NCBI RefSeq assembly: GCF_000765475.1
Contig: NZ_JRHO01000014.1
Span: 365,687 to 389,686 of the forward strand
Length of the DNA: 24,000 bases
Origin: Methanococcoides methylutens
Lineage (GTDB): Archaea; Halobacteriota; Methanosarcinia; Methanosarcinales; Methanosarcinaceae
Direction of reading: 5' to 3'
Shown: piece by piece, positions 4,460 through 22,879 of the stretch
Numbering within the stretch: the first letter of the stretch is position 1
Layout of the letters: each line of letters starts with the position of its first letter
Translations under genes and position numbers: made by a program
The notes under the pieces: generated by a model
What the model was told of the DNA's origin: nothing
The model's database searches: none
The model's input: the letters and a program-made list of their open reading frames with translations, nothing else

Positions 4460-4473
4460 TGAGGTGTTTCAAA

Positions 4474-5034: not shown

Positions 5035-5040
5035 AGAGTG

Positions 5041-5067
5041 TCTCATCTTTTTTTATTTTTGAGATGA
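5041..5067 (+). terminator. Oligo-T terminator candidate after arlB2
   Basis: T7-A-T5 run at 5048-5060, 14 nt after the arlB2 stop. It is flanked by a short complementary pair, TCATCT (5043-5048) and AGATGA (5062-5067). Archaeal terminators are typically oligo-T tracts. This fits a separate abundant archaellin transcript. Confidence 0.45.
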
Positions 5068-5171
5068 AACAAAAAGAAAATATATTAATTAATAGATGTA
5101 ACTATCCTTCCTTAATTAGTATTATTATTATAATTATTATTAAAATTTTTATATGTCCAGGTGAGTAAAAA

Positions 5172-5870
5172 ATGGGTGATGCAGAAGGTTTCGACCAGTC
5201 AATGATTGATGATCTGATGACGAGTGCTGAAGGAGACACCGTAGAGTCCAAAGTTGCTGACTTGGAAGCCGAGGTAGCTGAAATAAAAGGTTCTGTTAAA
5301 AAGCTCCTCTTGGATATAAGGGAAACAATGAGCGTTCTTGAGAATCCTTTTCAGAACATTCAGGCAATATCCAATCTTACTGCCCAAACACCTAATCCGG
5401 CCCATGTGCCCCCTACACCGCCAATAGATGAAATTCCTGATGCTGTCGAGGTTGAACCAGTTCCCCAGAATATTTCCAATATTCACGATCAAAATATGGA
5501 AAATAATGCCATGGGGAACAATGATTATGCCCAACAGGCAAGTAATCTTCCTGATTTTAAGCTTGTAGACCCCCTCTCATTCCATAAGACGATAATATGG
5601 GGACGAGAGATGGTGGAAAAATATGATTCTGAAACTATGCAGGAACTAGTCGAAATATTCTCACTCCTGGGCTATATCCCTGATAACATAAAAGAGATTA
5701 TACTCAAAATCACAAATATACTTTATGAAAATAATAATCTAGACGAATCGGTCATGGACCTATACAAGCTTTACCATATACTCAATCCGGAAGATCCAAG
5801 CCTTGACTCCAAGGTACTGGATTTAGTTCTGAATGAAAACGATGCGGAGAGTCCATGTCAAATGAAGTGA
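5172..5870 (+). CDS. Archaellum accessory protein of the ArlC/D/E (FlaC/D/E) type: N-terminal coiled coil plus C-terminal FlaD/E-like domain
   Basis: 232 aa. Heptad-like N-terminus VADLEAEVAEIKGSVKKLLLDIRETMSVLENPFQ, a Pro/Asn-rich linker, and a C-terminal segment FHKTIIWGREMVEKYDSETMQELVEIFSLLGYIPDNIKEIILKI that resembles the FlaD/E domain. The position between arlB and arlF is the canonical euryarchaeal slot. RBS AGGTGAG at 5159-5165. Confidence 0.68.
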   Translation: MGDAEGFDQSMIDDLMTSAEGDTVESKVADLEAEVAEIKGSVKKLLLDIRETMSVLENPFQNIQAISNLTAQTPNPAHVPPTPPIDEIPDAVEVEPVPQNISNIHDQNMENNAMGNNDYAQQASNLPDFKLVDPLSFHKTIIWGREMVEKYDSETMQELVEIFSLLGYIPDNIKEIILKITNILYENNNLDESVMDLYKLYHILNPEDPSLDSKVLDLVLNENDAESPCQMK

Positions 5871-6328
5871 TAACTACATCGATACTTGTAATAGCAAGTG
5901 TTGTAGCAGTTGTAGCTTTAGTTAGTGCTGTTGTTCCTTCGGTGAATGAGTTGTCACGTTCTTACACTTCTGTTGCAGATGAAATGGGAACTGAGGTCAG
6001 AACTGATGTCGATATAATATTTATTTCCGCTCAGGGAAACAACGTTTCCGTTTGGATCAAAAATGTTGGTTCCTCCAGGATTCCTTTATCCTATTTTGGA
6101 ATGAGTGACATATTTATCACGTCCTCTTCTAATTACTGGCATCCTGATTTTGAAAGCACATCCAATCCCGCCTGGAATTATACACTTGAAAATGGTGATG
6201 GAAATACGTGGGACTCAGGTGAAACAATAAAAACAATTATCGAGTTAGATAATCTACCCAGTGATACCTATAAGTTGAATTTCATTCTTTATAATGGAGT
6301 CTCCGGGTCAGATATATTCTCCAAGTGA
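5855..6328 (+). CDS. arlF: Archaellum protein ArlF (FlaF)-like; N-terminal TM helix plus a beta-rich domain
   Basis: 157 aa. Archaellin-like hydrophobic N-terminus ITTSILVIASVVAVVALVSAVVPS followed by VRTDVDIIFISAQGNNVSVWIKNVGSSRIP. The call relies on the canonical F-G-H-I-J gene order. ArlF and ArlG are not distinguishable by eye. Confidence 0.6.
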   Translation: MSNEVITTSILVIASVVAVVALVSAVVPSVNELSRSYTSVADEMGTEVRTDVDIIFISAQGNNVSVWIKNVGSSRIPLSYFGMSDIFITSSSNYWHPDFESTSNPAWNYTLENGDGNTWDSGETIKTIIELDNLPSDTYKLNFILYNGVSGSDIFSK

Positions 6329-6332
6329 TAAT

Positions 6333-6806
6333 ATGGGCTTTGATACAGTAATTGTTGCATTTTTTGTAATCACAACCATGATAGTTGTAGCAAACACCTT
6401 TATGATCGGGATGAATGACTTTGTAGATTCAGCTTATGATGGCTATAGTGCAATACATACAACTACAATGGATAAAATGCAAACGGATATTGAGATACAG
6501 ACAATCTGGTTCAATTCAACAGAAAATCACCTTCATTTCATCGTGGAAAATACCGGTGAAACCAAATTGAACAATTTTAATCTATGGGACATTATTGTTA
6601 TTAAAAACGGTACTGCCGATTATATGGATGACAATAAATGGACAATGGATGTGTATGATGGCCAGCTCAACCCCAATATTCTGGATCCACTCGAAGAAAT
6701 GGAAGTTGAGCTACATGAAGAATACGGGGTAGGAGATGAAATTATTTTAAAAATTGTCACTCCAAACGGCATTATTTCCTCCAAAGGGCACACAATTGGT
6801 GGTTGA
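6333..6806 (+). CDS. arlG: Archaellum protein ArlG (FlaG)-like; N-terminal TM helix plus a beta-rich domain
   Basis: ORF 6294-6806. The ATG at 6333, 5 nt after the arlF stop, gives MGFDTVIVAFFVITTMIVVANTF...DIEIQTIWFNSTENHLHFIVENTGETKL. This parallels the ArlF architecture. The assignment is by gene order. Confidence 0.6.
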   Translation: MGFDTVIVAFFVITTMIVVANTFMIGMNDFVDSAYDGYSAIHTTTMDKMQTDIEIQTIWFNSTENHLHFIVENTGETKLNNFNLWDIIVIKNGTADYMDDNKWTMDVYDGQLNPNILDPLEEMEVELHEEYGVGDEIILKIVTPNGIISSKGHTIGG

Positions 6807-6807
6807 A

Positions 6808-7524
6808 ATGGAAGACGAAGACAATAATAAAAACATTGTTTCAAGCGGTAATAATGAAATTGATAAAAAACTCGGAGAAGGCATACCTCTGGGATCCCTT
6901 GTACTTATAGAAGGTGAAAACGATACCGGAAAAAGTGTTTTGTGCCAACAGCTAGTATTTGGCGGATTGAATCAATTGCATAGGATGGCATATTATTCAA
7001 CTGAAAACACAATCAAAAGTCTACTTATGCAAATGGAAAGTCTAAGTCTGGATGTATCCGATTTTTACAGTTGGGGATATCTAAGAATATTCCCTGTTCA
7101 CCTTTCTGGCGTTGAATGGACCTCTGAACAGATGAAAGGCACTCTTAATCTGATGGCAGAGCACATCAAGAGCATAAGGGAGAAGGTGATAATAGTAGAT
7201 TCCCTCACAATGTTTACGACATATTCCGATGAAGATAATATTCTTGGTTTCCTTACAAGCCTTAAAAATTTTTGTGATCGAGGCCTTACTATTTTCATCA
7301 CCCTACACCAGCATGCTTTCAAGGAAGATACACTTGTAAGGATCAGATCTGCATGTGATTGCCATCTATTTCTCAGGAAAGAGCAGCTTTCAGATCGATA
7401 TATCAGTGTTATGGAAGTTTCAAAGCTAAGGGGCGCAAAGAAAACTACAGGTAATATTGTGAGTTTTGAAGTTCAACCTGGATATGGACTGAAAATTATT
7501 CCTATATCTCATGCCAAAACATGA
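6808..7524 (+). CDS. arlH: Archaellum ATP-binding protein ArlH (FlaH), KaiC/RecA-like
   Basis: ORF 6754-7524. The ATG at 6808 lies 1 nt after the arlG stop, with GGTGG upstream. Walker A LIEGENDTGKSVLCQQ and a Walker B-like VIIVDSLT. The size (238 aa) and position before arlI fit ArlH. Confidence 0.9.
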   Translation: MEDEDNNKNIVSSGNNEIDKKLGEGIPLGSLVLIEGENDTGKSVLCQQLVFGGLNQLHRMAYYSTENTIKSLLMQMESLSLDVSDFYSWGYLRIFPVHLSGVEWTSEQMKGTLNLMAEHIKSIREKVIIVDSLTMFTTYSDEDNILGFLTSLKNFCDRGLTIFITLHQHAFKEDTLVRIRSACDCHLFLRKEQLSDRYISVMEVSKLRGAKKTTGNIVSFEVQPGYGLKIIPISHAKT

Positions 7525-7557
7525 AAATGATGATTTTTTTAGTTTTTGGAGGTTTAT

Positions 7558-9390
7558 ATGGTTGAATCTGAAGATATACTTATGAAGGAAGGTTTTGAAA
7601 AGGGCTTGGAAGCCTGCTTTCCTTTTAAACCAAAAAAATATGAAGGGCATGATCATTCTGACGTAACAAAATCGAGTATATATAAGATACTTCCTCCTGG
7701 AATGAAAAAAGAAGTCGAAAGGAATCACCATCTTCTGGAATACTTACACATATTGCCGATTGATACGATGGGAATTCCAAAATATGTATCCAAACTTGAA
7801 TCAAAACATGGTGACCTTGAGCATCCCAATTTAATATACAAAGCAAGTGACAGTAGCTACGTACATATTTATCCAAACAAGAACGGTGTAAGGGATTATT
7901 ATATTCCGATAGAACCAAACCTACTTACCGGTGTTGGCAACATCCTAAAAGAATTAGAACATAGGATGCTGGATTACCTCACGGGCCTTGACTTCGATCC
8001 GGAAAATATTGAAGAAAAAACGCAGATATTGATCGAAGCTATGGATGATATTTGTGTGATTGGAGAAAAGGAAGAAAATCAAGATTCTTTTGCAAATTTG
8101 AAAAAGGTCCTTGGTTCAAAGCTCTTTCCGAATAAAGGGAAAAAGGAAGACAATCACATCTATTTATCTGAAGATCAATATAAGGCCTTAAAATATTCTC
8201 TTCTCAGAGATAAAATTGGTCTGGGTTTTCTTGATCCGTATATATGTGACAGCAATATAGAAGATATTACCTGCAACGGATTAGGGTCGATATATTTAGA
8301 GCACAAAGTATTTGATGGGCTAAGAAGTGTCCTGGAGTTCACTGACCATGACATTCTCAACCACTTTATAATCAAGCTTGCAGAAAGGATAGGTAAGCCC
8401 ATTACGTTTAAAGATCCTATTGTGGATGCCTCACTTCCGGATGGTTCGAGGATTAACATCGTTTATGGTACCGATGTAAGTAAAAATGGAAGTAACTTCA
8501 CAATAAGGAAATTTAATGAAATTCCATTTAGTATCCTTCAGGTAATCGATAAAGGAACGATGGACTACAGAGTTGCAGGTTATCTTTGGATCCTTCTTTC
8601 TGAAGGTATGAGTGGCTTTATCTGTGGTGAAACTGCAAGTGGTAAAACGACTTCATTAAATGCCCTTACAACTTTCATTAGCCCTGATGCAAAACTGGTA
8701 TCTATAGAAGATACTCCTGAATTGCAGATTCCTCACAAAAACTGGACACGTGAGATGACCAGAGGTAGCACAAGAGGCGGAGGGGTTGGCGAAGGAAGTG
8801 GTTCGGATGTTACAATGTTCGACCTTCTGAAAGCTGGCTTAAGGCAGAGACCAAATTATATTCTTGTGGGTGAGATCAGAGGAGTAGAGGGAAATGTTGC
8901 GTTCCAGGCTATGCAGACCGGGCACCCAGTCATGTCAACCTTCCACGCTGCAAGCGTTGAAAAACTAATACAGAGGATTACTGCAGACCCCATAAACATA
9001 CCTAAAACATATGTTGATAATCTGAATTTTGTTATCATCCAGTCTGCTGTCAGAAGACCTGATGGAAAAATGGTAAGAAGAGTAATCAGTGTGAACGAAG
9101 TTCTGGGATATGATCCTCAAAAGGGTGTTTCTTTCGTTGAGGCCTTTTCATGGGACCCGGTTACTGATTCTTATGTTTTCAGTGCTCATGGTAGTTCTTA
9201 TCTTCTGGAACAGAAAATTGCAACAAGACTAGGTATTCCTTCGAAGAGAAAACATGTTGTTTATGATGAGATCGAGAAAAGAGCAAAAATATTAGAAAGA
9301 TTTCAAAAGGAAGGGATCACTAATTTCTATGATTTCTTTGATACCACCTCTAAAATTACAAAACATGGGATGCTGAGGATTAAATTCTAA
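7558..9390 (+). CDS. arlI: Archaellum motor ATPase ArlI (FlaI), type II/IV secretion ATPase superfamily
   Basis: ORF 7546-9390 (the track start is a TTG inside the RBS). The ATG at 7558 follows GGAGGT. Walker A GETASGKTTSLNAL, Walker B/Asp box NYILVGEIRGVEG, His box MSTFHA. Confidence 0.95.
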   Translation: MVESEDILMKEGFEKGLEACFPFKPKKYEGHDHSDVTKSSIYKILPPGMKKEVERNHHLLEYLHILPIDTMGIPKYVSKLESKHGDLEHPNLIYKASDSSYVHIYPNKNGVRDYYIPIEPNLLTGVGNILKELEHRMLDYLTGLDFDPENIEEKTQILIEAMDDICVIGEKEENQDSFANLKKVLGSKLFPNKGKKEDNHIYLSEDQYKALKYSLLRDKIGLGFLDPYICDSNIEDITCNGLGSIYLEHKVFDGLRSVLEFTDHDILNHFIIKLAERIGKPITFKDPIVDASLPDGSRINIVYGTDVSKNGSNFTIRKFNEIPFSILQVIDKGTMDYRVAGYLWILLSEGMSGFICGETASGKTTSLNALTTFISPDAKLVSIEDTPELQIPHKNWTREMTRGSTRGGGVGEGSGSDVTMFDLLKAGLRQRPNYILVGEIRGVEGNVAFQAMQTGHPVMSTFHAASVEKLIQRITADPINIPKTYVDNLNFVIIQSAVRRPDGKMVRRVISVNEVLGYDPQKGVSFVEAFSWDPVTDSYVFSAHGSSYLLEQKIATRLGIPSKRKHVVYDEIEKRAKILERFQKEGITNFYDFFDTTSKITKHGMLRIKF

Positions 9391-9403
9391 ATGAGGCGTT
9401 GAT

Positions 9404-11023
9404 ATGGATATCTCCGATATAAAAAATATTTTTAAGAGCAAAAATGAAGGTGATACATCTAAATCTTTGTCAGGAATAATATCCCGCAGGGTAGATCGCT
9501 TTAAAAAAGAGCTCTACATTAGCAACGATATGCTTTTCTCCCTAACTTACATGGCATCCATATCTACTGCAAATGTGAGCAGGGACAAGATATTCGAGAA
9601 CATATCGAAGAAAACAGAATATTGCCCATATATTTATTTTGAAAAGGTCAAAGATCTATCCCAAGACTGGCATTATGATTACGCTAATGCATGTGAGCTT
9701 GTATCCACTAAGGTAAAGCATATTAGACTGCAAGAACTTTTTAATAGGTTCTCCAATGCGATTGCATCAGGTGAGCCAGACATTGATTTTCTCAAGAAAG
9801 AGTGGACATTGTTTAAAACAATAAGGAAAGACGAATTCGAGAGAAATCTTGAAACCACAAAAGAATGGTCAAACGCTTACACTGCGCTGCTTGTCTCAAC
9901 TTCCCTTGTATCCATTATAATATTACTTTCTGTAATTCTGTATAATCTAGGAGATCCTGAGAAGACACTTTACGGTACAGCTTTTATCGTGTCAGGTATG
10001 GCTTTTGGGGGTGTAGGATTATTATGCAAAGGAGTTCCCAGAGATTCGATGGTCCATAGTTTGGATAAGAAATCAAAGGAACAGACCTTCATTTACAAAT
10101 GGATGCCAGTTACAATAATTCTAGCTATCCTCTCAGTTATAACACTGACATTGATACCTTCATTTTTGCATCCCATTGATTTCTATGTAGATATCAAAGG
10201 TCTCGGAATGATTCTAGCAGGATTGATCATGCTCCCGGTTGGAATCACAGCTCACAGAGATATTGTCAAAGTTAACAAAAGAGATGAAAGTTATACGACA
10301 TTTATCAGGAGTCTTGGGTCAATCGTTAGTGGATCGGGATTGACAATTCCAAAGGCCCTAATGAAAATAGATCCAAAAAATCTTGGTGAATTGAAGGGTG
10401 TGACTCTTGAACTCTATAAGAAGCTTACAATTGGCATGGATTCAAAGTTGAGCTGGGATCAATTTGTAGAGGAATCAGGTAGCTATTTGATTCACAAATT
10501 TACAAGTGTTTTTGTTGATTCCATTAATTTGGGAGGAGATGCCGAAGAGGTTGGAGAGCTAGTAAGTTCATCAAACCTTGAACTTGTCCTTTTGAGAATG
10601 AAAAGGGATCGTATTTCTACTTCATTCACATACCTTGTCGTACCCCTTCATTTGGCAATGGTGGCACTTCTTCTTTTCATTGGGCAGATACTTACGATAT
10701 TCACAAACATCATTTCAGATCTATTTGTACAATATGACATATCAGAATCTGCGATCGCAGGTGGTGCAGGTGGTGTTGGAATGAATTTGGGAATCTTTGG
10801 AGGAGTTCCGGTTGAGCTTTTAGGTCAATACGTCGTAGTGGTAATTATAGTATTAACTCTGGCCAATATTCTTGTAGTAAATGTTGTGAAAGGAGGCCCT
10901 TTATATCTGATAGTATTTTACGCTTCAATATTTTTTATTCTTTCGGGAATCATGATGATCAGTGTTCCTCCCGTAGTGGACATGTTCTTTTCGTTTGACT
11001 CATTTATTGAAGGAGGTATATGA
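9404..11023 (+). CDS. arlJ: Archaellum platform membrane protein ArlJ (FlaJ), TadB/C / GspF-like polytopic protein
   Basis: 539 aa. Soluble N-terminal domain followed by multiple hydrophobic helices (LVSTSLVSIIILLSVILY, VTIILAILSVITLTLIP, VVVIIVLTLANILVV, LIVFYASIFFILSGIMMISV). It lies immediately after arlI. RBS GAGGCG at 9393-9398. Confidence 0.9.
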   Translation: MDISDIKNIFKSKNEGDTSKSLSGIISRRVDRFKKELYISNDMLFSLTYMASISTANVSRDKIFENISKKTEYCPYIYFEKVKDLSQDWHYDYANACELVSTKVKHIRLQELFNRFSNAIASGEPDIDFLKKEWTLFKTIRKDEFERNLETTKEWSNAYTALLVSTSLVSIIILLSVILYNLGDPEKTLYGTAFIVSGMAFGGVGLLCKGVPRDSMVHSLDKKSKEQTFIYKWMPVTIILAILSVITLTLIPSFLHPIDFYVDIKGLGMILAGLIMLPVGITAHRDIVKVNKRDESYTTFIRSLGSIVSGSGLTIPKALMKIDPKNLGELKGVTLELYKKLTIGMDSKLSWDQFVEESGSYLIHKFTSVFVDSINLGGDAEEVGELVSSSNLELVLLRMKRDRISTSFTYLVVPLHLAMVALLLFIGQILTIFTNIISDLFVQYDISESAIAGGAGGVGMNLGIFGGVPVELLGQYVVVVIIVLTLANILVVNVVKGGPLYLIVFYASIFFILSGIMMISVPPVVDMFFSFDSFIEGGI

Positions 11024-12647: not shown

Positions 12648-13460
12648 TTAAATTTTCATGTAGATTTTGTCTTTTATACTCACAGGTTCAAATAAACTTC
12701 TCATTTCAGGAGGTAATGTTTCGGATTTACCTATTATGAGATAGCCACCTTTTGTGAGTGAATCGTAGAAGTTGCTTATCATTTTTACTTTTTGAGTTTC
12801 ATTGAAATATATCATCACATTCCTGCAGAAAACAGTGTCAAAATGCTTTGAAACTGGAGTATCGTTTGTTAGATCATATCTTTTGAATCTATATGATAGA
12901 TTTTGAATCTTTTTTACTTTAAAAGTATCCTCAGATTTTTCAAAATACTTGTGCCTGAGCATATAGTCAAGGTTTTTAATTTTATCCTTGAAGTACACCC
13001 CTTCTGAAGCATTTTTTAAGCACTTTTCATCTATATCAGTAGCATATATCGATATGTTCCAATCTTCAGGAAATACTTCTTTTGCACAGATCCCAATAGA
13101 ATAAGGTTCTTCTCCGTTAGAACACCCAGCACTCCAAAATCTAACCAGTTTGCTTTGTGATTTTTGCTTTCTTTCTATTATATCTGCAATCAAGTTATCC
13201 TTGAAAAATATGAACGGTGTTTTGTCTCGCATAAATTCAGTCACATTAATAGTAAGAGTATCTATGAGTGCAGCTAATTCACCTTCATTCGTTTCAAGAA
13301 ATCGCATATAATCCTTATAATCAGTGATTCCTACAACCCTCATTCTCAGATCAATTCTTCTCCGAAGGTATTTATCCCTATAACCATCGAGAACGATACC
13401 CGATAATTTAGATACCTTGTTTGTAAGAAGATCAAAGTAATCTGTATCACTTACATCCAT
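12648..13460 (-). CDS. cheR: Chemotaxis protein methyltransferase CheR
   Basis: 270 aa. SAM-binding motif VRFWSAGCSNGEEPYS and VFCRNVMIYF. Overlaps the 3' end of cheD by 10 nt. A T6 run on the minus strand (12601-12606) is a terminator candidate just downstream. Confidence 0.93.
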   Translation of the reverse strand: MDVSDTDYFDLLTNKVSKLSGIVLDGYRDKYLRRRIDLRMRVVGITDYKDYMRFLETNEGELAALIDTLTINVTEFMRDKTPFIFFKDNLIADIIERKQKSQSKLVRFWSAGCSNGEEPYSIGICAKEVFPEDWNISIYATDIDEKCLKNASEGVYFKDKIKNLDYMLRHKYFEKSEDTFKVKKIQNLSYRFKRYDLTNDTPVSKHFDTVFCRNVMIYFNETQKVKMISNFYDSLTKGGYLIIGKSETLPPEMRSLFEPVSIKDKIYMKI

Positions 13461-14113
13461 AATACCTTCCCATTGCTATATTTAACAATTAGACTTCCGT
13501 CAACTGCATTGAAAATAACATTTCTCCCCATACTTCCCCCTACATCTGTGGCTAATATTTCGATTTTCTCTTTTTTGAGAGTTTCTTCAACAGATTTAAT
13601 ATTCCGATCACCGATCTTAAGTATGTCCAGATTCATGTGCTTAAATATCTGGGCACCACCTGCAACCTTTGCAGAAATATGTTTTCGCCTTGCTCCATTG
13701 CAAACCATTTCTTCAAGCATTGTTGTTATGGCAGTTTCAGCATGTTTGGTTTTTCCATCGTTTGACGCTCCGGGGAGCAATACATGTGCAATACCAGCCA
13801 TACGACTTTTGTGATCGTAAAGTACCACACCTACACAGGAACCAAGTCCCATTGCTTTCAGTAGGATATTTTTTCCCACTTTGTATTCTCCAATGCCAGC
13901 AATCAACTCTCCTTCTAATAATTGTACATTGGAGTCCGGGGAGCTACCTTTTAAGTGGTTCTTTGCGCCTATTATCAGTTCACAATCTGGATGGCAAGAA
14001 CCAGATGCACACCTACCATCCATAGAACAGTATGAACCCACTACTGTATTATTTCTGCTCAAAACAATCGCTTTTGCGTTTGCTGTTGAGACGTATGCAA
14101 TATCGTTACTCAT
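13451..14113 (-). CDS. cheD: Chemoreceptor glutamine deamidase CheD with an N-terminal extension of about 70 aa
   Basis: 220 aa. The CheD core starts near IGIGEYKVGKNILLKAMGLGSCVGVVLYD...GIAHVLLPG...AKVAGGAQIF. The start at 14113 forms an ATGA overlap with the cheC stop, which supports the long N-terminus. Confidence 0.9.
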   Translation of the reverse strand: MSNDIAYVSTANAKAIVLSRNNTVVGSYCSMDGRCASGSCHPDCELIIGAKNHLKGSSPDSNVQLLEGELIAGIGEYKVGKNILLKAMGLGSCVGVVLYDHKSRMAGIAHVLLPGASNDGKTKHAETAITTMLEEMVCNGARRKHISAKVAGGAQIFKHMNLDILKIGDRNIKSVEETLKKEKIEILATDVGGSMGRNVIFNAVDGSLIVKYSNGKVLWM

Positions 14114-14712
14114 AATCCTTCCAATATATTCATAATGTTACTGAATAAATCATCTTCAGGTAACAATGCCAAATTTATTTCGATGTTTGACTCCGAATTT
14201 AGCTTGGTTTCAAATATAATTAGGTTATCACTTTTTTGTGCCATCTGGGAAACTACCCCATCCATAACTGCAGTAGCCATATCAACTGCATAATTTGGAG
14301 GAGAAGGTAACAGGATTATGTCCAGGAAGTCAGCTGAGGCATCACAAAATGATGATGCAAGTATGTTTCCAGCTTCCATTACTGCAGAAGCATACATCTC
14401 ATCGTCAACATCTTCTGTCCCATACATTTCCACTACAAGTTTGTCTGCAGATTTCATAGGTACCATGACGTATAGGTAACCAGAGTTGTTCCCCTCAAGA
14501 TCCTGTAATGCTATAAGGACACCTGCTACAACTTCTTCATACAATTCGCCACGCAAATCTGCTATACTTACGATTTTTACTTCTGGAACAGTAATTTCAA
14601 TATATTTGTCTAACAATTTTGAAAGTGAAGTGGCTGCATGTCCAGTACCAATATTACCAAGTTCTTTTAAAACCTCTACTTCCATTTCACTAAGACATTC
14701 TAATTCAAGCAT
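14110..14712 (-). CDS. cheC: CheY-P phosphatase CheC
   Basis: 200 aa. Both E-x2-N-x22-P active-site motifs are present: ELGNIGTGHAATSLSKLLDKYIEITVP and EAGNILASSFCDASADFLDIILLPSPP. Overlaps cheA by 8 nt. Confidence 0.9.
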   Translation of the reverse strand: MLELECLSEMEVEVLKELGNIGTGHAATSLSKLLDKYIEITVPEVKIVSIADLRGELYEEVVAGVLIALQDLEGNNSGYLYVMVPMKSADKLVVEMYGTEDVDDEMYASAVMEAGNILASSFCDASADFLDIILLPSPPNYAVDMATAVMDGVVSQMAQKSDNLIIFETKLNSESNIEINLALLPEDDLFSNIMNILEGL

Positions 14713-17700
14713 CTATATCTCCTCCTACTAGTGCTGATACATCCAGGATCGGTATGACCCTTCCATCCCCCAGAATTGTAACTCCAATAAATCCTTTAAC
14801 TTTTGACAAAACACTGCCCAGTGGTTTTATCACTATTTCTTGTTGATCAATTATTGAATCAACAAGTAACGCAACTTCTTCACTTTCCCTCTCTACAATA
14901 ATACCAACTTCTTTTTCCAATTGTTTGCCATACTCCCCAATATCAAAAAATTCTTTTAATCTTATTGCAGGCAGCAGCTTTTCTCTTACATAAAGCAGTG
15001 GCTGATCACGTATAAGTTTGAAATTATCTTTGTTAACATCGAGTGCTTCAACAACATTGGAAATTGGAATTGCATAAGTCTCATTCCCGGATTCAACAAC
15101 AAGTGACTTTATAATTGCAACTGTGGGAGGGAGGTTGATCCTCATCTTGGTACCTTTCCCGTTCTGGGAGTATATTTTTATTTTACCACCCAGTTTCTCG
15201 ACAGTTGTCTTCACGGCATCCATTCCGACCCCTCGTCCTGAGATCTCGGTCGCACTGTCTTTTGTAGATAGTCCTGAAGTAAAAATAAGCATCCTAATTT
15301 CATCTTCACTAAGTTTATCCAAATCAGTCGATGAAATGATCCCCTTTTCTAAAGCCTTATTCTTGATCTTTTTCAAATCCAGACCTTTCCCGTCATCTTC
15401 AATTTCAATTATGACGTTGCTCTTCTCCCTTTTTGCTGAAAGTTTTATATGTCCTGTTTGACTTTTACCGGCTTTTGCTCTTTCTTCCGGAGTTTCGATT
15501 CCATGATCGACACAATTCCTTACAAGATGAACCAAAGGATCACTAATTTCGTCAAGAATAGTCCTATCGAGTTCAGTTTCCTGACCCTCGATTTCAAAAC
15601 CTATGTCTTTTTCAAACTTTCTACTTAGGTCCCTCACCATTCTTGGGAATTTTTTGAATACCTTTTCGATTTTGACCATTCTCATCATCATAACTTCATC
15701 TTGTAAACTTGTGATGGATTTGTCCAAAATTGCAGTAGCCTCTTCCAGTTCGGGTATCCTATGCTCCTGGGAAATTTGAAGAAGGCAACCTTTGTTAATT
15801 ACAAGTTCTCCAACAAGGTTCATTATGCTATCAATATTGGAAACTCGAACACGTATTGTATCCTGCCTTTTGTTCCCCACTGATCCTTTTTTAGTAGTAT
15901 CCTGCTTGGCAGTGCAATTATCTTGATTTGATCCAATATTTCTGATGTTAACTACTTCTTTCTGGATATCTTCTTCCACCATTAACGGAGATTCATCTTC
16001 CTGAATACTTTCTTCAGACATTAACGAAACTTCATCTTTCTGAATACTTTCTTCAGACACTAACGAAACTTCATCTTTCTGAATACTTTCTTCAGACATT
16101 AACGAAACTTCATCTTTCTGAATACTTTCTTCAGACACTAACGAAACTTCATCTTTCTGAATACTTTCTTCAGAAATTAACGAAACTTCATCTTTCTGAA
16201 TACTTTCTTCAGAAATTAACGAAACTTCATCTTCCAGAATAATTTCTTCAGACATTAACGGAGATTCATCTTCCTGAATAATTTCTTCAGATATTAACGA
16301 GGATTCATCTTCCAGAATACTTTCTTCAAACATTAACGAAGCTTCTTCATCCTGAATGATTTCCTTTGCCGATATTGCACCGGAATAGTTATTCCCGAAA
16401 AGTGTGTTTATCAATTTCCTTAACTTTTCCTGAAGAGAACAATTTTCATTACTGAGAATTTCCTTAAATGTAAACATCATACTTTCATTTGTTTGAATAG
16501 TAGATTCGATTATTTCTTGCTCCCCTTTACTTCCTTCATTATTGGGAATATCCTCCTGAGCAATATTTTCCATTTCATCCTGATTTGGGAGTTGAATTTC
16601 CTCAGTGACTTCTTCTTGTTCACAGGAGATAATTTCAAAATTATCAATTTCAGAAATTTTGTTCATTACATCTTCCACTTTACCCGCATCCCCCTTGATG
16701 AAGGCTTTAAGTGAACCCTTAAAAGTGCTATCGATCTCTTCTTCCGTAGGTTCTGTTCTTATAACATACCCCGCTTCTTTCAAAGATTCAATAACAAGTA
16801 TCGCTTTCAATTCCTTTATATCAGAATCAGGAGCTAGTTTTACATTGAGTATGAGATTATGCCCCCCATCCCCCTTTTCACAATTCAGATCTTCTGTTTC
16901 CAAAGACCCTGATGTTTCGGAGACAGCTTCTTCCAGAGGACAAGAATCCACATTTTCCTCATTTTCTTCTTGATCACAGGAGATGACTTCAAAATTATCA
17001 ATTTCAGAAATTTTGTTCATTACATCTTCCACTTTACCCGCATCCCCCTTGATGAAGGCTATAAGTGAACCCTTAAAAGTGCTATCGATCTCTTCTTCTG
17101 TAGGTTCTGTTCTTATAACATGCCCTGCTTCTTTCAGAGATTCAATAACCAATATTGCTTTCAATTCCTTTATATCAGAATCAGGAGCTAGTTTTACATT
17201 GAGTATGAGATTATGTTCTGCGCCCTCATTTTTAGATTTCATATCTTCTGTTTCCAGAGATCTTACCACAGAAGAGACATCTTTTTTCAAAGAAGAATCC
17301 ACAGATTCGTTATGTTCTTCTTGATCACAGGAGATAACTTCAAAATTATCAATTTCAGAAATTTTGTTCATTACATCTTCCACTTTGCCCGCATCCCCCT
17401 TGATGAAGGCTTTAAGTGAACCCTTAAAAGTGCTATCGATCTCTTCTTCTGTAGGTTCTGTTCTTATAACATGTCCTGCTTCTTTCAGAGATTCAATAAC
17501 CAATATAGCTTTCAATTCCTTTATATCAGAATCAGGAGCTATTTTTACATTGAGTATGAGATTAGGTTCTCCGTCCTCATTTTCAGAATTTAGATCTTCT
17601 GTTTCCAGAGATCCTGTTACGGCAGAGACATCTTCTTCCCGATGAGTAAATTCCACATCTTCGGCTTCCTGCGTATCTATTATTGCAGAGGTGCTTTCTT

Positions 17701-18109
17701 CAGGGATGCGATCTTCAACTTCTTCATCTTTTTGAGATTTATACATGTCGAAAGCATTTAGAAGGTTGTCGATTTTAATCTCATCGTTGCCTTCGCTTTC
17801 TATTTTCTCCACCATTTCATTTATTCGATCTACAGTTGAAAGCATTATGTCTATAAGGTCGCTATCAATTACGATATCGCCACATTTTATGCCACTTAAA
17901 ACTTCTTCCATGCTGTGACAGAGTTTTTCAAGTGATGCATATCCAAGGAATCCTGCCATTCCTTTAATTGTGTGTGCTACTCTGAATATTTCATCCAAAG
18001 CGTCATTATCACCATTTTCCAGATCTACAAAAGACTGATTGAATATCTCAAGATACTCATTTACTTCCTGAAGGAAATCATCCTTGTAAGCGTCCATATC
18101 AGTTTGCAT
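14705..18109 (-). CDS. cheA: Chemotaxis histidine kinase CheA, unusually long (1134 aa) because of internal tandem duplications
   Basis: HPt (P1) with the phospho-His context RVAHTIKGMAG (H46). Dimerisation/P3 begins at TIRVRVSNIDSIMNLVGELV. The kinase N box is HLVRNCVDHGIE, G1 is IEDDGKGLD and G2 is SGRGVGMD. P5 is CheW-like (YAIPISNVVEAL...ILGDGRVIPILD). About 640 aa lie between P1 and P3, and most of that is repeats. Confidence 0.95.
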   Translation of the reverse strand: MQTDMDAYKDDFLQEVNEYLEIFNQSFVDLENGDNDALDEIFRVAHTIKGMAGFLGYASLEKLCHSMEEVLSGIKCGDIVIDSDLIDIMLSTVDRINEMVEKIESEGNDEIKIDNLLNAFDMYKSQKDEEVEDRIPEESTSAIIDTQEAEDVEFTHREEDVSAVTGSLETEDLNSENEDGEPNLILNVKIAPDSDIKELKAILVIESLKEAGHVIRTEPTEEEIDSTFKGSLKAFIKGDAGKVEDVMNKISEIDNFEVISCDQEEHNESVDSSLKKDVSSVVRSLETEDMKSKNEGAEHNLILNVKLAPDSDIKELKAILVIESLKEAGHVIRTEPTEEEIDSTFKGSLIAFIKGDAGKVEDVMNKISEIDNFEVISCDQEENEENVDSCPLEEAVSETSGSLETEDLNCEKGDGGHNLILNVKLAPDSDIKELKAILVIESLKEAGYVIRTEPTEEEIDSTFKGSLKAFIKGDAGKVEDVMNKISEIDNFEIISCEQEEVTEEIQLPNQDEMENIAQEDIPNNEGSKGEQEIIESTIQTNESMMFTFKEILSNENCSLQEKLRKLINTLFGNNYSGAISAKEIIQDEEASLMFEESILEDESSLISEEIIQEDESPLMSEEIILEDEVSLISEESIQKDEVSLISEESIQKDEVSLVSEESIQKDEVSLMSEESIQKDEVSLVSEESIQKDEVSLMSEESIQEDESPLMVEEDIQKEVVNIRNIGSNQDNCTAKQDTTKKGSVGNKRQDTIRVRVSNIDSIMNLVGELVINKGCLLQISQEHRIPELEEATAILDKSITSLQDEVMMMRMVKIEKVFKKFPRMVRDLSRKFEKDIGFEIEGQETELDRTILDEISDPLVHLVRNCVDHGIETPEERAKAGKSQTGHIKLSAKREKSNVIIEIEDDGKGLDLKKIKNKALEKGIISSTDLDKLSEDEIRMLIFTSGLSTKDSATEISGRGVGMDAVKTTVEKLGGKIKIYSQNGKGTKMRINLPPTVAIIKSLVVESGNETYAIPISNVVEALDVNKDNFKLIRDQPLLYVREKLLPAIRLKEFFDIGEYGKQLEKEVGIIVERESEEVALLVDSIIDQQEIVIKPLGSVLSKVKGFIGVTILGDGRVIPILDVSALVGGDIDA
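15981..16370 (-). repeat. In-frame 39-nt (13-aa) tandem repeat array, about 10 units, inside cheA
   Basis: On the plus strand, units starting A[T/C]TAACG... occur at 15981, 16020, 16059, 16098, 16137, 16176, 16215, 16254, 16293 and 16332. The five central units differ by only 1-2 nt (consensus ATTAACGAAACTTCATCTTTCTGAATACTTTCTTCAGAC). They encode SEESIQKDEVSL[V/M/I]. The outer units are more degenerate. Confidence 0.95.
16616..17640 (-). repeat. Three tandem modules of 351-354 nt (117-118 aa) inside cheA; P2-like domain plus linker
   Basis: The anchor CACAGGAGAT recurs at 16621, 16975 and 17326 on the plus strand. Cores of about 240 nt are near-identical; I count about 6-7 mismatches between copies 1 and 2 by eye. 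Each encodes NLILNVK[IL]APDSDIKELKAILVIESLKEAG[HY]VIRTEPTEEEIDSTFKGSL[KI]AFIKGDAGKVEDVMNKISEIDNFE[VI]IS. The linkers are more diverged but all contain SLETED. Confidence 0.92.
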
Positions 18110-19157
18110 TGCATTTCACCTCTAACATCCTAATAATTTCTTCAGGTATCTCAAAAATAGGTTTTACAACGTCAATTGCTCCGGCTTCGATTGCAGCTTT
18201 TGGCATCCCAAAAATAACACAGGTATCTTCACTGCATGCTATGGTAGATCCATTTGATTCTTTTATTTTTTTGAATCCGGATGCTCCATCGACCCCCATT
18301 CCCGTAAGTATTGTGGCGATTGAATTTTTCCCATATACATTTACAAAGCTTTCAACAGTCACATCGACAGAAGGCATTACAGCGTGCATCGGTTCACCTT
18401 TTATGATCTTTATCCTGGTTACATTCAAGGCTTTTCGAATTTGCATATGATAGCCACCAGGGGCGATGTAAGCAACTCCATTTTTTACTTTCTCATTATT
18501 TTCAGCTTCTTTTACTTCAAGTTCTGATAAGGTATTCAATCTCGCAGCTAACTGGCTACAAAAATTGCCTTCTGGCATATGCTGGACTACAAAAACCGAT
18601 GCTGGCAGGTTGCCTGGCAATCTTGGAATTATTTGCTCAAGAGAAGAAGGGCCACCTGTTGATGAACCAATAAGTACTCCCATATTTTGCATCTCCGGAC
18701 AATTCCAGTTTCCATTTATTACCTCACCTTTGAACTTTTTCAGGTTGAGTAGTCTTATAATGTTTGGATTTGAATTGTGGATGCTACGAACTTTCGTTAT
18801 TAGCTCGCTTTCGCTCTTAGCTATTTCTTGTAAGCCACTGGGTTTTGTTATAAAATCGATCGCACCAAGTCTCAAAGCTTCCAGAGCTTCTCTAGAACCC
18901 TTTTTGGTGAGAGAGCTAAACATTATAATAGGTATCGGAGTTGTATCCATTATAGCTTCAACGGCTGCCAGCCCATCCATGACAGGCATATTAACATCCA
19001 TTACTATAACTTCCGGCTTTAGCTTATTCGCTTTTTCTACAGCTTCTTTGCCATTTTTTGCAATCCCGATGACTTCTATATCGCCAGCACTCTCAAGCAT
19101 GTCTCTTGCTGCCCTTCTCATTAAGGCAGAATCATCAACAACAAGGGTTTTGATCAT
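18099..19157 (-). CDS. cheB: Chemotaxis response regulator protein-glutamate methylesterase CheB
   Basis: 352 aa. REC domain (LVVDDSALMRR, VIVMDVNMPVMDG, KP). Catalytic domain with GSSTGGP (Ser), VVQHMP (His) and LTGMGVDG (Asp). Overlaps cheA by 11 nt. Confidence 0.95.
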   Translation of the reverse strand: MIKTLVVDDSALMRRAARDMLESAGDIEVIGIAKNGKEAVEKANKLKPEVIVMDVNMPVMDGLAAVEAIMDTTPIPIIMFSSLTKKGSREALEALRLGAIDFITKPSGLQEIAKSESELITKVRSIHNSNPNIIRLLNLKKFKGEVINGNWNCPEMQNMGVLIGSSTGGPSSLEQIIPRLPGNLPASVFVVQHMPEGNFCSQLAARLNTLSELEVKEAENNEKVKNGVAYIAPGGYHMQIRKALNVTRIKIIKGEPMHAVMPSVDVTVESFVNVYGKNSIATILTGMGVDGASGFKKIKESNGSTIACSEDTCVIFGMPKAAIEAGAIDVVKPIFEIPEEIIRMLEVKCNAN

Positions 19158-19171
19158 ATTTTACCCGGCCT

Positions 19172-19534
19172 TTATGCGCCAGTAACTTTTTTAATTTCTT
19201 CAAGGACCTTTGGTGCCTGGAAGGGCTTTATGATATATCCTTTTGCACCAAGCTTGATGGCTGTCTTTACTATTTTTTCCTGACCAATAGCGGTACACAT
19301 TACAACTTTTGCACCTTTGTCAAAGCTTTTTATCTGTTTTAAAGCATCAATTCCATTCATATCCGGCATAACTATATCCATTGTTACTACATCCGGATTT
19401 AATTCCTTGTACATTTCTACAGCCTGGTTCCCATTTTCAGCTTCCCCGGCTATATCGAATCCTGCTCCAAAGAGTATGTTCTTCAAAAGCTTTCTCATAA
19501 ATGCTGTGTCATCGACAATTAATACTTTTGGCAT
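19172..19534 (-). CDS. cheY: Chemotaxis response regulator CheY
   Basis: 120 aa single REC domain: VLIVDDTAFMR, VTMDIVMPDMNG (phospho-Asp), MCTAIG, YIIKPF. Confidence 0.95.
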   Translation of the reverse strand: MPKVLIVDDTAFMRKLLKNILFGAGFDIAGEAENGNQAVEMYKELNPDVVTMDIVMPDMNGIDALKQIKSFDKGAKVVMCTAIGQEKIVKTAIKLGAKGYIIKPFQAPKVLEEIKKVTGA

Positions 19535-19551
19535 GTAATCTCACCTTTTAA

Positions 19552-20352
19552 TTATAAATTCGGTATGTCCCCAACCATGGTCACCCCACGAGGGGTTAAT
19601 TCAACTTCTTTTCTTATTTTCACAACTTTTGCCAAACCGGAATCAACTAACCTATCATAGTACTCATTAAGTTCGTCTGTAGAAATTCCGATCATATTCT
19701 CTATTGAAACAAAATCTAATCCAGAATATACAAGTGTTAAAATCTGTTTTTCCATATCTGTAAATTCTATCCCGGGTTTATGTGTTTCAATAAGGCGGTT
19801 AAGATAATTTTCAAGCATCTCCAATGTAGTTTCAGGGCACATTAGTAAGCTTGTAGCGACCTGACCATTCTCAACTTTGGACAGGACAAGAACTTTTCTC
19901 TGTTTACCCCCAACATTTCTCACATCTTTCACCACAGTGCCCAGACTATCAAACAGCATCTTCTGCTGCTTTTTTGGTGAGATGAACCAGAATCCCTCAT
20001 CAGTCACACTAAAATAACCTTTCTCCCACTGAGTTCCAGATGAAACTACACCTCCAACTGTTGCTGAATCAAGGTAATAGACCGCAAATCTATCGGCTTT
20101 CAAATTAAATGCAAGAAACCGGAAAACCTGTTGCATGAGATTCTCCGGGGGCTTGATGATAATCTCTCCATCATTCTTGATCCTAATTGCCTCTACGCCC
20201 TCAACTTCAACATTACCAATGTCTTCAATTTCGTTTACCTGAATTTTGGTATTCCCAATGCATAGGATTTGCTCGGTAACGATGAGTTCCGCATCAACCC
20301 ATTTGCCATCATACAATTTTGCAGGAGTCTGGAGGTGAACTTTGCCATTCAT
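19552..20352 (-). CDS. cheF: Probable CheF, the archaea-specific adaptor between CheY-P and the archaellum (DUF439 family)
   Basis: 266 aa with no match to a bacterial Che family. It lies between cheW and cheY and forms an ATGA overlap with cheW. Archaeal che operons characteristically encode CheF. The C-terminal third looks winged-helix-like (EKQILTLVYSGLDFVSIENMIGISTDELNEYYDRLVDSGLAKV). The assignment is by context and elimination, not by a recognised motif. Confidence 0.65.
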   Translation of the reverse strand: MNGKVHLQTPAKLYDGKWVDAELIVTEQILCIGNTKIQVNEIEDIGNVEVEGVEAIRIKNDGEIIIKPPENLMQQVFRFLAFNLKADRFAVYYLDSATVGGVVSSGTQWEKGYFSVTDEGFWFISPKKQQKMLFDSLGTVVKDVRNVGGKQRKVLVLSKVENGQVATSLLMCPETTLEMLENYLNRLIETHKPGIEFTDMEKQILTLVYSGLDFVSIENMIGISTDELNEYYDRLVDSGLAKVVKIRKEVELTPRGVTMVGDIPNL

Positions 20353-20828
20353 CTTTGCATACCTTCGATTTCCTCTTCACTAAACACTTTATCCAGATCC
20401 ATTAATGTCAAAAGACCATCATCGAGTTTCCCCACACCAGTCAGGAATTTTGAATCGTTTCTTGACGTTATAATGCTTGGTAACTCATCTATATTCTTTG
20501 ACGACAGGTACTTGACTTCATTCACTGTATCCACAATCATCCCTATGACTGCGTTTTCGTATTCAACTACAATAATCCTAGTTTCACTGTCCGTTTCTTT
20601 TGTCTCCTTGCCAAATCGAGTTCTTAAATTTATTATAGTCGTAATCTGACCCCTGAGATTTACAACCCCCTCTATGAACTCGGGTGCATTCGGAATTCTT
20701 GTAATCTTGGTTGGCCTGATTATTTCCTTTACCTGAGAAATATCAACACCATATCGTTCTTCTCCAAGAGCGAATACAATAACCTGTACGGTCTGGTCAA
20801 CATCCATCATTTGATTATGAGGATTCAT
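20349..20828 (-). CDS. cheW: Chemotaxis coupling protein CheW
   Basis: 159 aa. Typical CheW sequence: VIVFALGEERYGVDISQVKEIIRPTKITRIPNAPEFIEGVVNLRGQITTIINLRTRFG...IIVVEY...IGMIVDTVNEV. Confidence 0.93.
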   Translation of the reverse strand: MNPHNQMMDVDQTVQVIVFALGEERYGVDISQVKEIIRPTKITRIPNAPEFIEGVVNLRGQITTIINLRTRFGKETKETDSETRIIVVEYENAVIGMIVDTVNEVKYLSSKNIDELPSIITSRNDSKFLTGVGKLDDGLLTLMDLDKVFSEEEIEGMQR

Positions 20829-20871
20829 TTAGATCACCTACAAAAAGATATTAAAAGGAGGTCAAACCTCC

Positions 20872-22827
20872 TTAATTTTCAGAAAATTTGAAGTTTTTCA
20901 AGAGCATATCCGTTGTCTTCTGAGCTAGATCAGTAACATTCTTTATGGAACCACTAACCTGTTCTGATGCTGCAGTCTGTTCTTCGATTGCTGCTGAAGT
21001 TTCCTCGCTGTTTGCAGCATTTTCTTCTGCAGTTGAAGCAACTTCCCCTATGTTCTCATTGATACTCTCGATCTTCTCCATGCCCTCTTCTGCTTTCTGA
21101 TTCAGTTCACCAAGCATCGAATTGATCTTGTCGACCATCTCTGTGATTTCGCCAGACTTACCCAGAGCCCCTCCAATATCTCTGTTACCACTAATTACTT
21201 GTTCTTTGGCTCTTTCAATGGCTTCAGTGACCTTTTTTGTCTCTTTCTGGACATTGACCACAATTCCATTGATCTCGGCTGTGCTGCTTCTTGACTCTTC
21301 AGCAAGTTTCCTTACCTCATCTGCTACAACAGCAAAACCTCTCCCGTGTTCCCCTGCTCTTGCCGCTTCTATTGCTGCATTCAGGGCCAGGAGATTTGTC
21401 TGGTCTGCAATGGATTTGATTTTGTCAGTAACCTTATCGATATTATCAACAGCACCATCAAGAGATGTAACGATGCCAGCAAGTTGCTCGATCTCATTCA
21501 TGATTACTTCGAGGTCTTCCAGTGCACTGTTTGCGAGTTTTTGACTTCCGTCACTCATTTCTACTGCTTTAGCAGAGAAACTTGCAGATTTTGTAGCTGC
21601 TTCACTCAGTTCCTTGAATATCTGTTCGGAAGCTTTTGCATCCAATGATGCAGTATTAGCATGTCTTGAAAGGTTTTCAGATCCTGTTGCAATCTGTTCT
21701 GCAGCAGTTGATATTTGCTCCATACCCGTATTCATCTGGTTGACAGCTTCACGGGACTGATTCACCTCATCCAGCGTAGCATTCATATCGCCCACCGTAG
21801 ACTGAACAATTCCTCTTAGGTTCCCTACAAAGTTATTGAATTCGTCGAAGGTCTTGCCGAAATCATCATCTTTGACCTTCTCAAGCTTGGTATCAAGATC
21901 ACCCTCGCCAACCATTTTAATTCCAGTTCCAAGGTCTCCAAGACATTTATTGGTGTAATCAAGCAATTCTTCGACTTCTTTTTCTTTCTGCTTGATATCG
22001 GTCAGGTCTGTAAGCACTTCCAGTATTCCTTCAAAATTACCTTCCTCGTCATATATAGGTGAAACAGAACTTATTGTGTAGAGCTCACGGTCCAGCCCAT
22101 TTAACCTTACGATTGTTTCTATTGAATCCACACTTTTGCGAGTATCCAGTGCAATTTCAATAATCGACTGGTTGGTTCCAAATTTAGTTTCTGCATCCTC
22201 TCCAACCAGTGTTGTTTTTGCAACAATATCAGAATGAGGCCTTCCTATGATTTCTTCATCAGATTGGAATTGGCTCAGTTTGACAAAATGATCATTTATG
22301 TGCTTGACCTTGCCTTCGGGATCTACGAAAAGTGCAAGTGCAGGTTCTGGTATGCTTTTTACAATTGTTTTCTGGGACTCTGCTTTTGCCAGGACATTTT
22401 CTGTAATGTTCAGGAATACACCATCCAGATAAGCTGCATTTCCCTCGTCATCGTTTACCAGATTACCTTCTTCACGGATGTAAACAGATTCTCCTCTTGT
22501 ATTTTTTATTCTGTAGTTAACTTTGTATGATTTGTTATTTTTCATTGCTATGTCGATAGCTTCATCAATTTTTGGCACATCTTCGGGAAAAACAATGTCC
22601 GACCATGTCAACTTTTTATCAAGATAATCTGTCTTTGGGTAACCTGTGAGCTCATATACATTTTTGCTGATGTAGTATATGTCCCATGATGCTTTTATGT
22701 CACATCTGAAAATAGTAACAGGAAGATTGTCAATCAGCCAGCTAATCTCTTCTTCCTTTTGTTTTGCGTCTTTATTGTCTGGCCCTACAATTGTGATGTT
22801 TTCTGTAATTGGCTCTTTATTTCCCAT
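20872..22827 (-). CDS. Methyl-accepting chemotaxis protein, apparently cytoplasmic, with two N-terminal PAS-like domains
   Basis: ORF 20872-22845. The ATG at 22827 is preferred because AGGAGGAG lies 5 nt upstream. The conserved signalling hairpin is present: [43 protein letters not shown]-like segments are [13 protein letters not shown]...[12 protein letters not shown]...[13 protein letters not shown] and [21 protein letters not shown]...[21 protein letters not shown] see no hydrophobic stretch of TM length. Confidence 0.92.
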
Positions 22828-22879
22828 AAATACTCCTCCTGACATGATGGATTATTATTATTATCATTATTATGAGTTG

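Follow-up and report, generated by a model that had tools for sequence, protein, structure and literature searches.

In Escherichia coli and Thermotoga maritima, the P2 domain of CheA, the histidine kinase of chemotaxis, binds CheY with a sub-micromolar dissociation constant (Kd) and presents it to the P1 domain on flexible tethers. Here we analyze the cheA gene in a 24,000-nucleotide (nt) stretch of the archaeon Methanococcoides methylutens (assembly GCF_000765475.1, contig NZ_JRHO01000014.1, forward-strand positions 365,687 to 389,686; hereafter the window, numbered from its first letter), the product of which carries three nearly identical P2 domains in tandem. The array was first noticed in a reading of the sequence alone, which we refer to as the original prediction.

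In E. coli the P2-CheY Kd is about 0.5 µM, one CheY can be held jointly by P1 and P2 of a single CheA, and the two domains tumble independently on flexible linkers (PMC5705603). Deletion of P2 slows phosphotransfer and does not abolish it, and more than 50% of CheAs lack the domain (PMC10782961). Most CheAs have one P2 and some have duplications; P2 was duplicated in the ancestor of the Borreliales, and the other duplications represent several independent events (PMC10782961). One published double-P2 case is CheA2 of Borrelia burgdorferi, where P2-alpha and P2-beta are 26% identical and both have been proposed to bind CheY, raising the local CheY concentration (PMC10703414).

Archaeal class-F1 CheAs with duplicated P2 domains are also on record (Berry, Andrianova & Zhulin 2023, PMC10782961). 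In the available portion of Table S3 of that paper, architectures beginning Hpt,P2,P2 occur in Methanomicrobiales, Methanosarcinaceae, Thermococcales and Methanospirillum, amounting to dozens of archaeal double-P2 CheAs; among them are M. burtonii (897 amino acids, aa), Methanococcoides sp900774055/AM1 (952 aa), Methanosarcina spp., Methanomicrobiales and about 30 Thermococcales. The same portion lists M. methylutens LI82_RS12540, 1134 aa, as Hpt,P2,P2,P2, the only triple in the sorted block of multi-P2 F1 architectures. The original prediction knew of no multi-P2 CheA, and it had named a common and already annotated multi-P2 CheA in this clade as the ground on which its novelty would lapse. 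Because this very protein is in Table S3 and multi-P2 CheAs are common in related archaea, the novelty claim fails: the triple-P2 CheA is real, yet it is a catalogued architecture and not a new one. The available parts of the paper hold no discussion of the triple copy, its near-identity, concerted evolution or within-genus variation in copy number. Our literature searches found no clade-specific work on multiple P2 domains or on Methanococcoides CheA, and no published account of how a P2 array evolves.

Three P2 domains in tandem in M. methylutens CheA

Tandem Repeats Finder (TRF) reported a repeat at 16610-17639 with a period of 351 nt (2.9 copies, 89% matches, score 1673), and a repeat search placed three 300-nt copies at spacings of 354 and 351 nt. 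All three modules fall within a single minus-strand open reading frame (ORF), 14705-18109, with the frame intact throughout. Its translation contains three tandem modules of 117-118 aa, with cores that start at aa 183, 300 and 418 and SLETED motifs at aa 167, 284 and 402, so that the module lengths, periods and consensus given in the original prediction are correct. Plus-strand ORFs of 93-122 aa at 16605-17645 were considered as genes and rejected as antisense shadows of the modules; they recur because the sense sequence repeats, and it is the sense frame that has strong Pfam support.

The 80-aa cores are 95-98% identical at the DNA level. Copies 1 and 2 differ at 6 positions per 249-nt core (4 synonymous), copies 1 and 3 at 12 (8 synonymous) and copies 2 and 3 at 11 (6 synonymous). 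In protein sequence the copies are 96-97% identical, with five variable positions (I/L, H/Y, K/I, V/I and D/E), of which only K/I is non-conservative and none falls in a conserved column of the P2 family alignment. The linkers are 69-72% identical to one another at the nucleotide level, in agreement with the predicted contrast between cores with a handful of differences and diverged linkers.

Pfam recognized three stretches of P2 (PF07194) in the protein, totaling 123.5 bits, and a single isolated module scored 55 bits (E 8.5e-15), where the cutoff is 23. With a P2 hidden Markov model (HMM) built here, each copy scored 100-101 bits. A module-family profile made from 36 diverse modules matched chain A of 1U0S, the T. 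maritima CheA P2 in complex with CheY, over its full length (E 4.2e-16); a single-sequence phmmer search with one module against Protein Data Bank (PDB) sequences returned nothing relevant, and 1U0S was recovered by the family profile only. An AlphaFold2 (AF2) model of the module, with a predicted local distance difference test (pLDDT) score of 93.6, has the order beta-alpha-beta-beta-alpha-beta (E-H-E-E-H-E) of the open-faced sandwich in 1U0S chain A. In a Foldseek search against the PDB, 1u0s_A was the sole match with E<=0.001 (template modeling [TM] scores 0.82 and 0.80, root-mean-square deviation 2.4 Å). We conclude that, by sequence profile and predicted fold, each module is a bona fide P2 domain, as the original prediction had proposed. 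The modules share the Pfam family and fold of the T. maritima domain, itself present only once, at 22% sequence identity; CheY binding is seen for the T. maritima P2 in the 1U0S complex, whereas for the archaeal modules it would follow from homology only.

The modules also occupy the position expected of P2. The Hpt domain was found at aa 9-104 (Pfam, E 2.7e-17), and H46 within VAHTIKGMAG is invariant in an alignment with 40 homologs. H-kinase_dim (750-809), HATPase_c (856-995) and a C-terminal CheW-like domain (1003-1128), the three domains that make up a CheA core according to Berry et al. 2023 (PMC10782961), each scored above the Pfam cutoff. In a full-length AF2 model the confident units are P1, three P2 domains that fold separately, and P3-P5, which together with the Pfam order confirms that the array lies between the Hpt and dimerization domains, on flexible linkers with pLDDT below 50. 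The product is an exact database match to WP_052402859.1 (M. methylutens), and the 1134-aa M. methylutens CheA is placed in class cheaF1 in the available portion of Table S3 of PMC10782961; it is a class-F1 chemotaxis histidine kinase CheA. Our preferred reading, to which we give a probability of roughly 0.8, is that its single CheY/CheB-docking P2 has expanded to a tandem array of three intact P2 domains.

The array in a second assembly

The original prediction cautioned that assemblers may collapse or expand the copy number at this site. The repeats are long (351-354 nt) with cores 95-98% identical, and a related assembly, that of Methanococcoides sp. SA1, holds a 587-nt exact repeat at which copy number is untrustworthy. 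A second M. methylutens assembly, GCA_900773915.1, encodes a CheA (WP_135607206.1, 1108 aa) with the identical three P2 modules. Its flanks match the window at 99.5-99.7% identity, and it is therefore a different sequence. Relative to WP_052402859.1 the protein has one substitution and a two-unit deletion in a 13-aa repeat array described below, and nothing else. The same three modules are thus present in two different assemblies, GCF_000765475.1 (source of the 1134-aa protein in the available part of Table S3) and GCA_900773915.1. In addition, every copy is tagged by 6-12 core single-nucleotide differences and by its own linker, no exact match between modules exceeds 73 nt, which is less than an ordinary read, and the reading frame is unbroken. 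An array expanded or collapsed by the assembler is unlikely, and we leave it only the slightest of chances.

Evolution of the array

The original prediction took the near-identity of the cores to mean either very recent duplication or ongoing gene conversion. A contig search for relatives with the full CheA returned one distant bacterial locus and no Methanococcoides genome, and the cheA loci of the second M. methylutens assembly, AM1, M. burtonii and SA1 were fetched. The comparison thus covers four Methanococcoides genomes, and the segments compared are short (57-nt half-linkers and 240-nt cores). Between the window and AM1, divergence at synonymous sites (dS) is 0.26 both in P1 and in P3-P5. 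The between-copy comparison proposed in the original prediction gave a core dS of 0.08-0.15 within the window and 0.08 within AM1. The ratio of nonsynonymous to synonymous divergence (dN/dS) among copies is about 0.13-0.21, which suggests that each copy has been kept functional, with the qualification that conversion confounds the estimate. Cores are 95-98% identical within the window and 95% within AM1, and 90-92% identical between the two. Nine core sites are fixed between all three window copies and both AM1 copies, against 1-2 sites that support copy-to-copy orthology. Paralogs within a genome are therefore more alike than orthologs between genomes, as in concerted evolution.

The core results alone fit independent recent duplications and gene conversion alike, and it is the linkers that decide. 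The head half of inter-P2 linker 2 of the window is 89% identical to the single inter-core linker of AM1 (AM1_L1) and 63-74% identical to linkers within its own genome, a grouping recovered in 1934/2000 bootstraps. Based on this orthology, the inter-core linker, and hence the duplicated array, predates the species split, although the segment is 57 nt and the support moderate. The tail half of the AM1 inter-core linker is closest to the AM1 upstream linker, AM1_L0 (88% versus 74%; 1964/2000 bootstraps), and the homogenized tract in AM1 therefore reaches beyond the core into the tail of the linker. The two M. burtonii cores differ at a dS of 0.49, about the age of the genus, and homogenization is therefore not universal. 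Likewise, the two copies of Methanohalophilus are 68-70% identical and orthologous by position, and identity between P2 copies in Methanosarcina ranges from 64% to 97%.

We considered whether the near-identity could instead reflect youth, through recent tandem duplications in each lineage once M. methylutens and AM1 had separated, without any gene conversion. Such duplications would account for cores that group by genome, for a core dS below the species value and for copy number that varies between close species (2, 2 and 3), and the linker-plus-core unit is bounded by a similar QE(E/A) that could mediate repeated unequal exchange. They do not readily account for the orthology of the linker 2 head, for window linkers that diverge by 28-31%, far above the neutral divergence of the adjacent cores, or for the two copies of M. 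burtonii, which are about as old as the genus split. We therefore regard recent duplication as distinctly improbable. The comparisons suggest, with moderate support, that the array predates the M. methylutens/AM1 split and was homogenized by gene conversion or unequal exchange, mainly in the cores and in some lineages, and its best reading includes the occasional gain or loss of P2 units. Of the two origins first offered, gene conversion is the one that fits better, given the linker orthology and the genome-fixed core sites.

Acidic linkers and a second tandem array

The linkers that separate the P2 domains are acidic and predicted to be disordered. Stretches with pLDDT below 50 in the full-length model span aa 128-180, 263-297, 380-414, 498-542 and 572-750. 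Acidic residues (D+E) make up 37% of aa 121-182, and the last ~37 aa of the P1-P2 linker align as the first copy of the repeated linker. The P2-P3 linker is 27% D+E with a net charge of -51. Because the folded units are confident and the linkers have pLDDT below 50, the predicted architecture looks like P2 beads on an acidic, disordered string between P1 and P3-P5. Long linkers are general in this family: Methanosarcinaceae CheAs total 850-1040 aa.

A second in-frame array, absent from the original prediction, lies in the P2-P3 linker of the same gene (TRF 15980-16357, 39-nt period, 9.7 copies, 91% matches). The second M. methylutens assembly has exactly two units (78 nt) fewer, and the longest exact repeat inside the array is 96 nt at an offset of 78; the difference could stem from genuine slippage variation or from a collapse during assembly. 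No more than 3-6 units, all degenerate, are present in AM1 and M. burtonii. The same linker contains a two-helix element at aa 542-571 (window 16397-16486, minus strand; FTFKEILSNENCSLQEKLRKLINTLFGNNY) with a pLDDT of about 68-78, which is kept in AM1 and partly in M. burtonii and may be a docking or regulatory motif.

Distribution of multi-P2 CheAs

Following the proposal to count modules in orthologs, we applied the P2 HMM to the 120 best homologs. One P2 was found in 98 and two in 18, the latter including M. burtonii, Methanococcoides sp. AM1, Methanohalophilus and several Methanosarcina; three were found in the two M. methylutens proteins and six in one protein of Methanococcoides sp. SA1. 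P2 copy number in Methanococcoides is thus 2, 3 and possibly 6. When 1.84 billion representative proteins were searched exhaustively with the profile, CheAs with two P2 stretches were many and proteins with at least three were rare: P0006 with six, P0124 with three, and P0145 with three by profile and two by Pfam.

P0124, a 981-aa CheA on a 39 kb NCBI contig, has the same Hpt-P2-P2-P2-P3-P4-P5 order as M. methylutens CheA (three Pfam P2 domains). It belongs to a different lineage, its sequence resembles the bacterial-type P2 modules in our set, and its copies are 30-32% identical to one another, in contrast to 96-97% here, which indicates an old triplication that escaped homogenization. Because the P0124 copies are so diverged, the triple-P2 arrangement arose at least twice, once anciently and without homogenization. 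Like M. methylutens CheA, Borrelia CheA2 has more than one P2 between P1 and P3. The Borrelia copies are two in number, 26% identical, ancient and fixed in all Borreliales, whereas M. methylutens has three homogenized copies that cluster by genome instead of forming anciently diverged paralogs conserved by position across an order. The M. methylutens array is of archaeal origin, independent of the Borreliales duplication.

The SA1 protein, NPE27230.1, is an 872-aa 'hypothetical protein' of chimeric structure on contig JABKBV010000003.1 (GCA_013166765.1; L002:5001-7619). In it, ~22 aa of a CheB N-terminus precede six near-identical P2 domains, which are followed by 28 aa of the linker that comes after P2, the final residues of P4, and P5 (CheW-like), with no Hpt, P3 or kinase domain, and only cheY (upstream) and cheC (downstream) of the che operon remain at the locus. 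The gene contains the 587-nt exact repeat mentioned above, and its copy number is unverifiable from short reads. NPE27230.1 could be a decaying remnant, a misassembly or a kinase-less CheY scaffold, and in view of the repeat and the chimeric structure we downgraded it as proof of higher copy numbers.

Gene organization and coordinates

Coordinates of the gene, its domains and its operon are collected in Table 1. The operon holds cheW, cheY, cheB, cheR and an MCP gene alongside cheA. A 266-aa ORF between cheW and cheY (19552-20352, minus strand) had no significant match in a direct Pfam scan, which gave only a weak match to HTH_45 (E 0.0013). Because this ORF is 86% identical to an M. burtonii ORF with PF04283 (CheF-arch) on record, it is probably a divergent CheF-like adaptor. 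On the opposite strand the operon is adjoined by an archaellum gene cluster (3899-11023, plus strand) that encodes two archaellins, two shorter archaellin-domain proteins (FlaF/FlaG-like), a KaiC-like FlaH, a T2SSE-type FlaI and a T2SSF-type FlaJ. In NCBI and UniRef, the full-length CheA WP_052402859.1, its sister WP_135607206.1 and several Methanosarcina orthologs carry the name 'chemotaxis protein CheW', a misannotation that was probably prompted by the CheW-like domain at the C terminus.

Table 1. Features of the M. methylutens cheA locus (window coordinates; MCP, methyl-accepting chemotaxis protein)
Feature	Position	Strand	Basis
cheA, 1134 aa, Hpt-P2-P2-P2-long linker-P3-P4-P5	14705..18109	-	ORF, Pfam domains, exact database match
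P1/Hpt domain, aa 1-127, phospho-accepting His46	17729..18109	-	Pfam, alignment, AF2 model
P1-P2 linker, aa 128-182, acidic, predicted disordered	17564..17728	-	pLDDT <50 at aa 128-180; linker alignment
P2 copy 1, core aa 183-262	17324..17563	-	Pfam best stretch aa 187-258; own HMM 183-258; AF2 fold
Inter-P2 linker 1, aa 263-299, most diverged linker	17213..17323	-	69-72% nt identity to other linkers; pLDDT <50
P2 copy 2, core aa 300-379	16973..17212	-	Own HMM 300-375; 6/249 nt from copy 1; folded in full-length model
Inter-P2 linker 2, aa 380-417	16859..16972	-	Head half orthologous to AM1_L1, the only inter-P2 linker in Methanococcoides sp. AM1
P2 copy 3, core aa 418-497	16619..16858	-	Own HMM 418-493; 11-12/249 nt from copies 1 and 2; folded
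P2-P3 linker, aa 498-745, 248 aa, mostly predicted disordered	15875..16618	-	Composition; pLDDT <50
Second tandem array in P2-P3 linker, ~10 units of 13 aa (SIQKDEVSLxSEE), aa 584-713	15971..16360	-	TRF
Kinase core: P3 dimerization aa 750-809, P4 HATPase_c 856-995, P5 CheW-like 1003-1128	14726..15862	-	Pfam; AF2 confident at aa 751-1130
che operon: MCP(PAS-PAS-HAMP)-cheW-cheF-like-cheY-cheB-cheA-cheC-cheD-cheR	12648..22845	-	Pfam scans

Proposed multivalent docking and its alternatives

We infer from homology that the three P2 copies provide multivalent docking for CheY and CheB. Each copy would dock one CheY or CheB receiver domain, and a CheA dimer would then offer six equivalent docking sites where there are otherwise two. 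CheY and CheB would become locally more concentrated around phospho-P1, and the two proteins could be docked simultaneously. At 96-97% identity, the copies most likely have a single specificity in common.

The original prediction had suggested that three copies might let one kinase serve CheY, CheB and perhaps CheF-bound complexes at once. The copies could then be specialized for different partners, for example CheY, CheB and a third receiver or a CheF-bound complex, as may hold for P2-alpha and P2-beta of Borrelia. The operon does encode two receiver-domain partners, CheY and CheB, and diverged multi-P2 CheAs exist, with copies 26% identical in Borrelia, 30-32% in P0124 and 68-70% in Methanohalophilus, where orthologs are position-specific. 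The near-identity of the M. methylutens copies weakens this suggestion: K/I is the only non-conservative difference, the five variable positions avoid conserved family columns, and ongoing homogenization works against specialization. We consider specialized copies very improbable.

A more serious alternative, although still an unlikely one, is that the additional P2 copies are by-products, selectively near-neutral, of a disordered P1-P3 tether prone to repeats, with any effect exerted through tether length and not valency. The 13-aa array expands independently in the same tether and differs by two units between the M. methylutens assemblies, close relatives have 1, 2 or 3 P2 copies, P2 is missing from the majority of CheAs (PMC10782961), and the linkers of Methanosarcinaceae CheAs are very long in general. 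Against this, all copies have intact predicted P2 folds and the residues conserved in the family, dN/dS between copies is 0.13-0.21, and in the available part of Table S3 a double P2 is kept across whole orders (Thermococcales and Methanomicrobiales), which argues for some value.

Several points weigh against the expansion to three intact docking domains that we prefer. CheY/CheB docking by each archaeal P2 copy is put forward from homology only. More than half of all CheAs do without P2 (PMC10782961), so the extra copies may add little. The change from K233 to I350 in copy 2 is a non-conservative, copy-specific substitution, and conversion confounds the dN/dS between copies. The strict grouping of cores by genome was recovered in only 1496/2000 bootstraps, and the gene-conversion inference draws on the short half-linkers (57 nt) and cores (240 nt) of four genomes.

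Implications

The practical result is a correction, in that the triple-P2 CheA is real and already catalogued. A caution for annotation and assembly also follows from the 'CheW' name, from the count of 13-aa repeats that differs in the sister assembly and from the 587-nt exact repeat in SA1. The locus provides an example of concerted evolution acting on a folded signaling domain while the adjacent disordered linkers drift.

More speculatively, and with the odds well against it, the Methanosarcinaceae P2 region might be a conversion-homogenized docking array of variable copy number (1, 2, 3 and perhaps 6) which, with the 13-aa tether repeat, would serve as an evolvable dial for the number and reach of CheY and CheB near phospho-P1. 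At the extreme, the six-P2 protein of SA1 would be a natural CheY scaffold or sponge, and not debris or a misassembly. Close relatives with 1, 2 and 3 near-identical P2 copies form a natural valency series, the cleanest for a docking domain in a two-component kinase. With this series one could ask whether the kinetics of phosphotransfer are tuned by P2 valency and tether length, a question raised for Borrelia CheA2.

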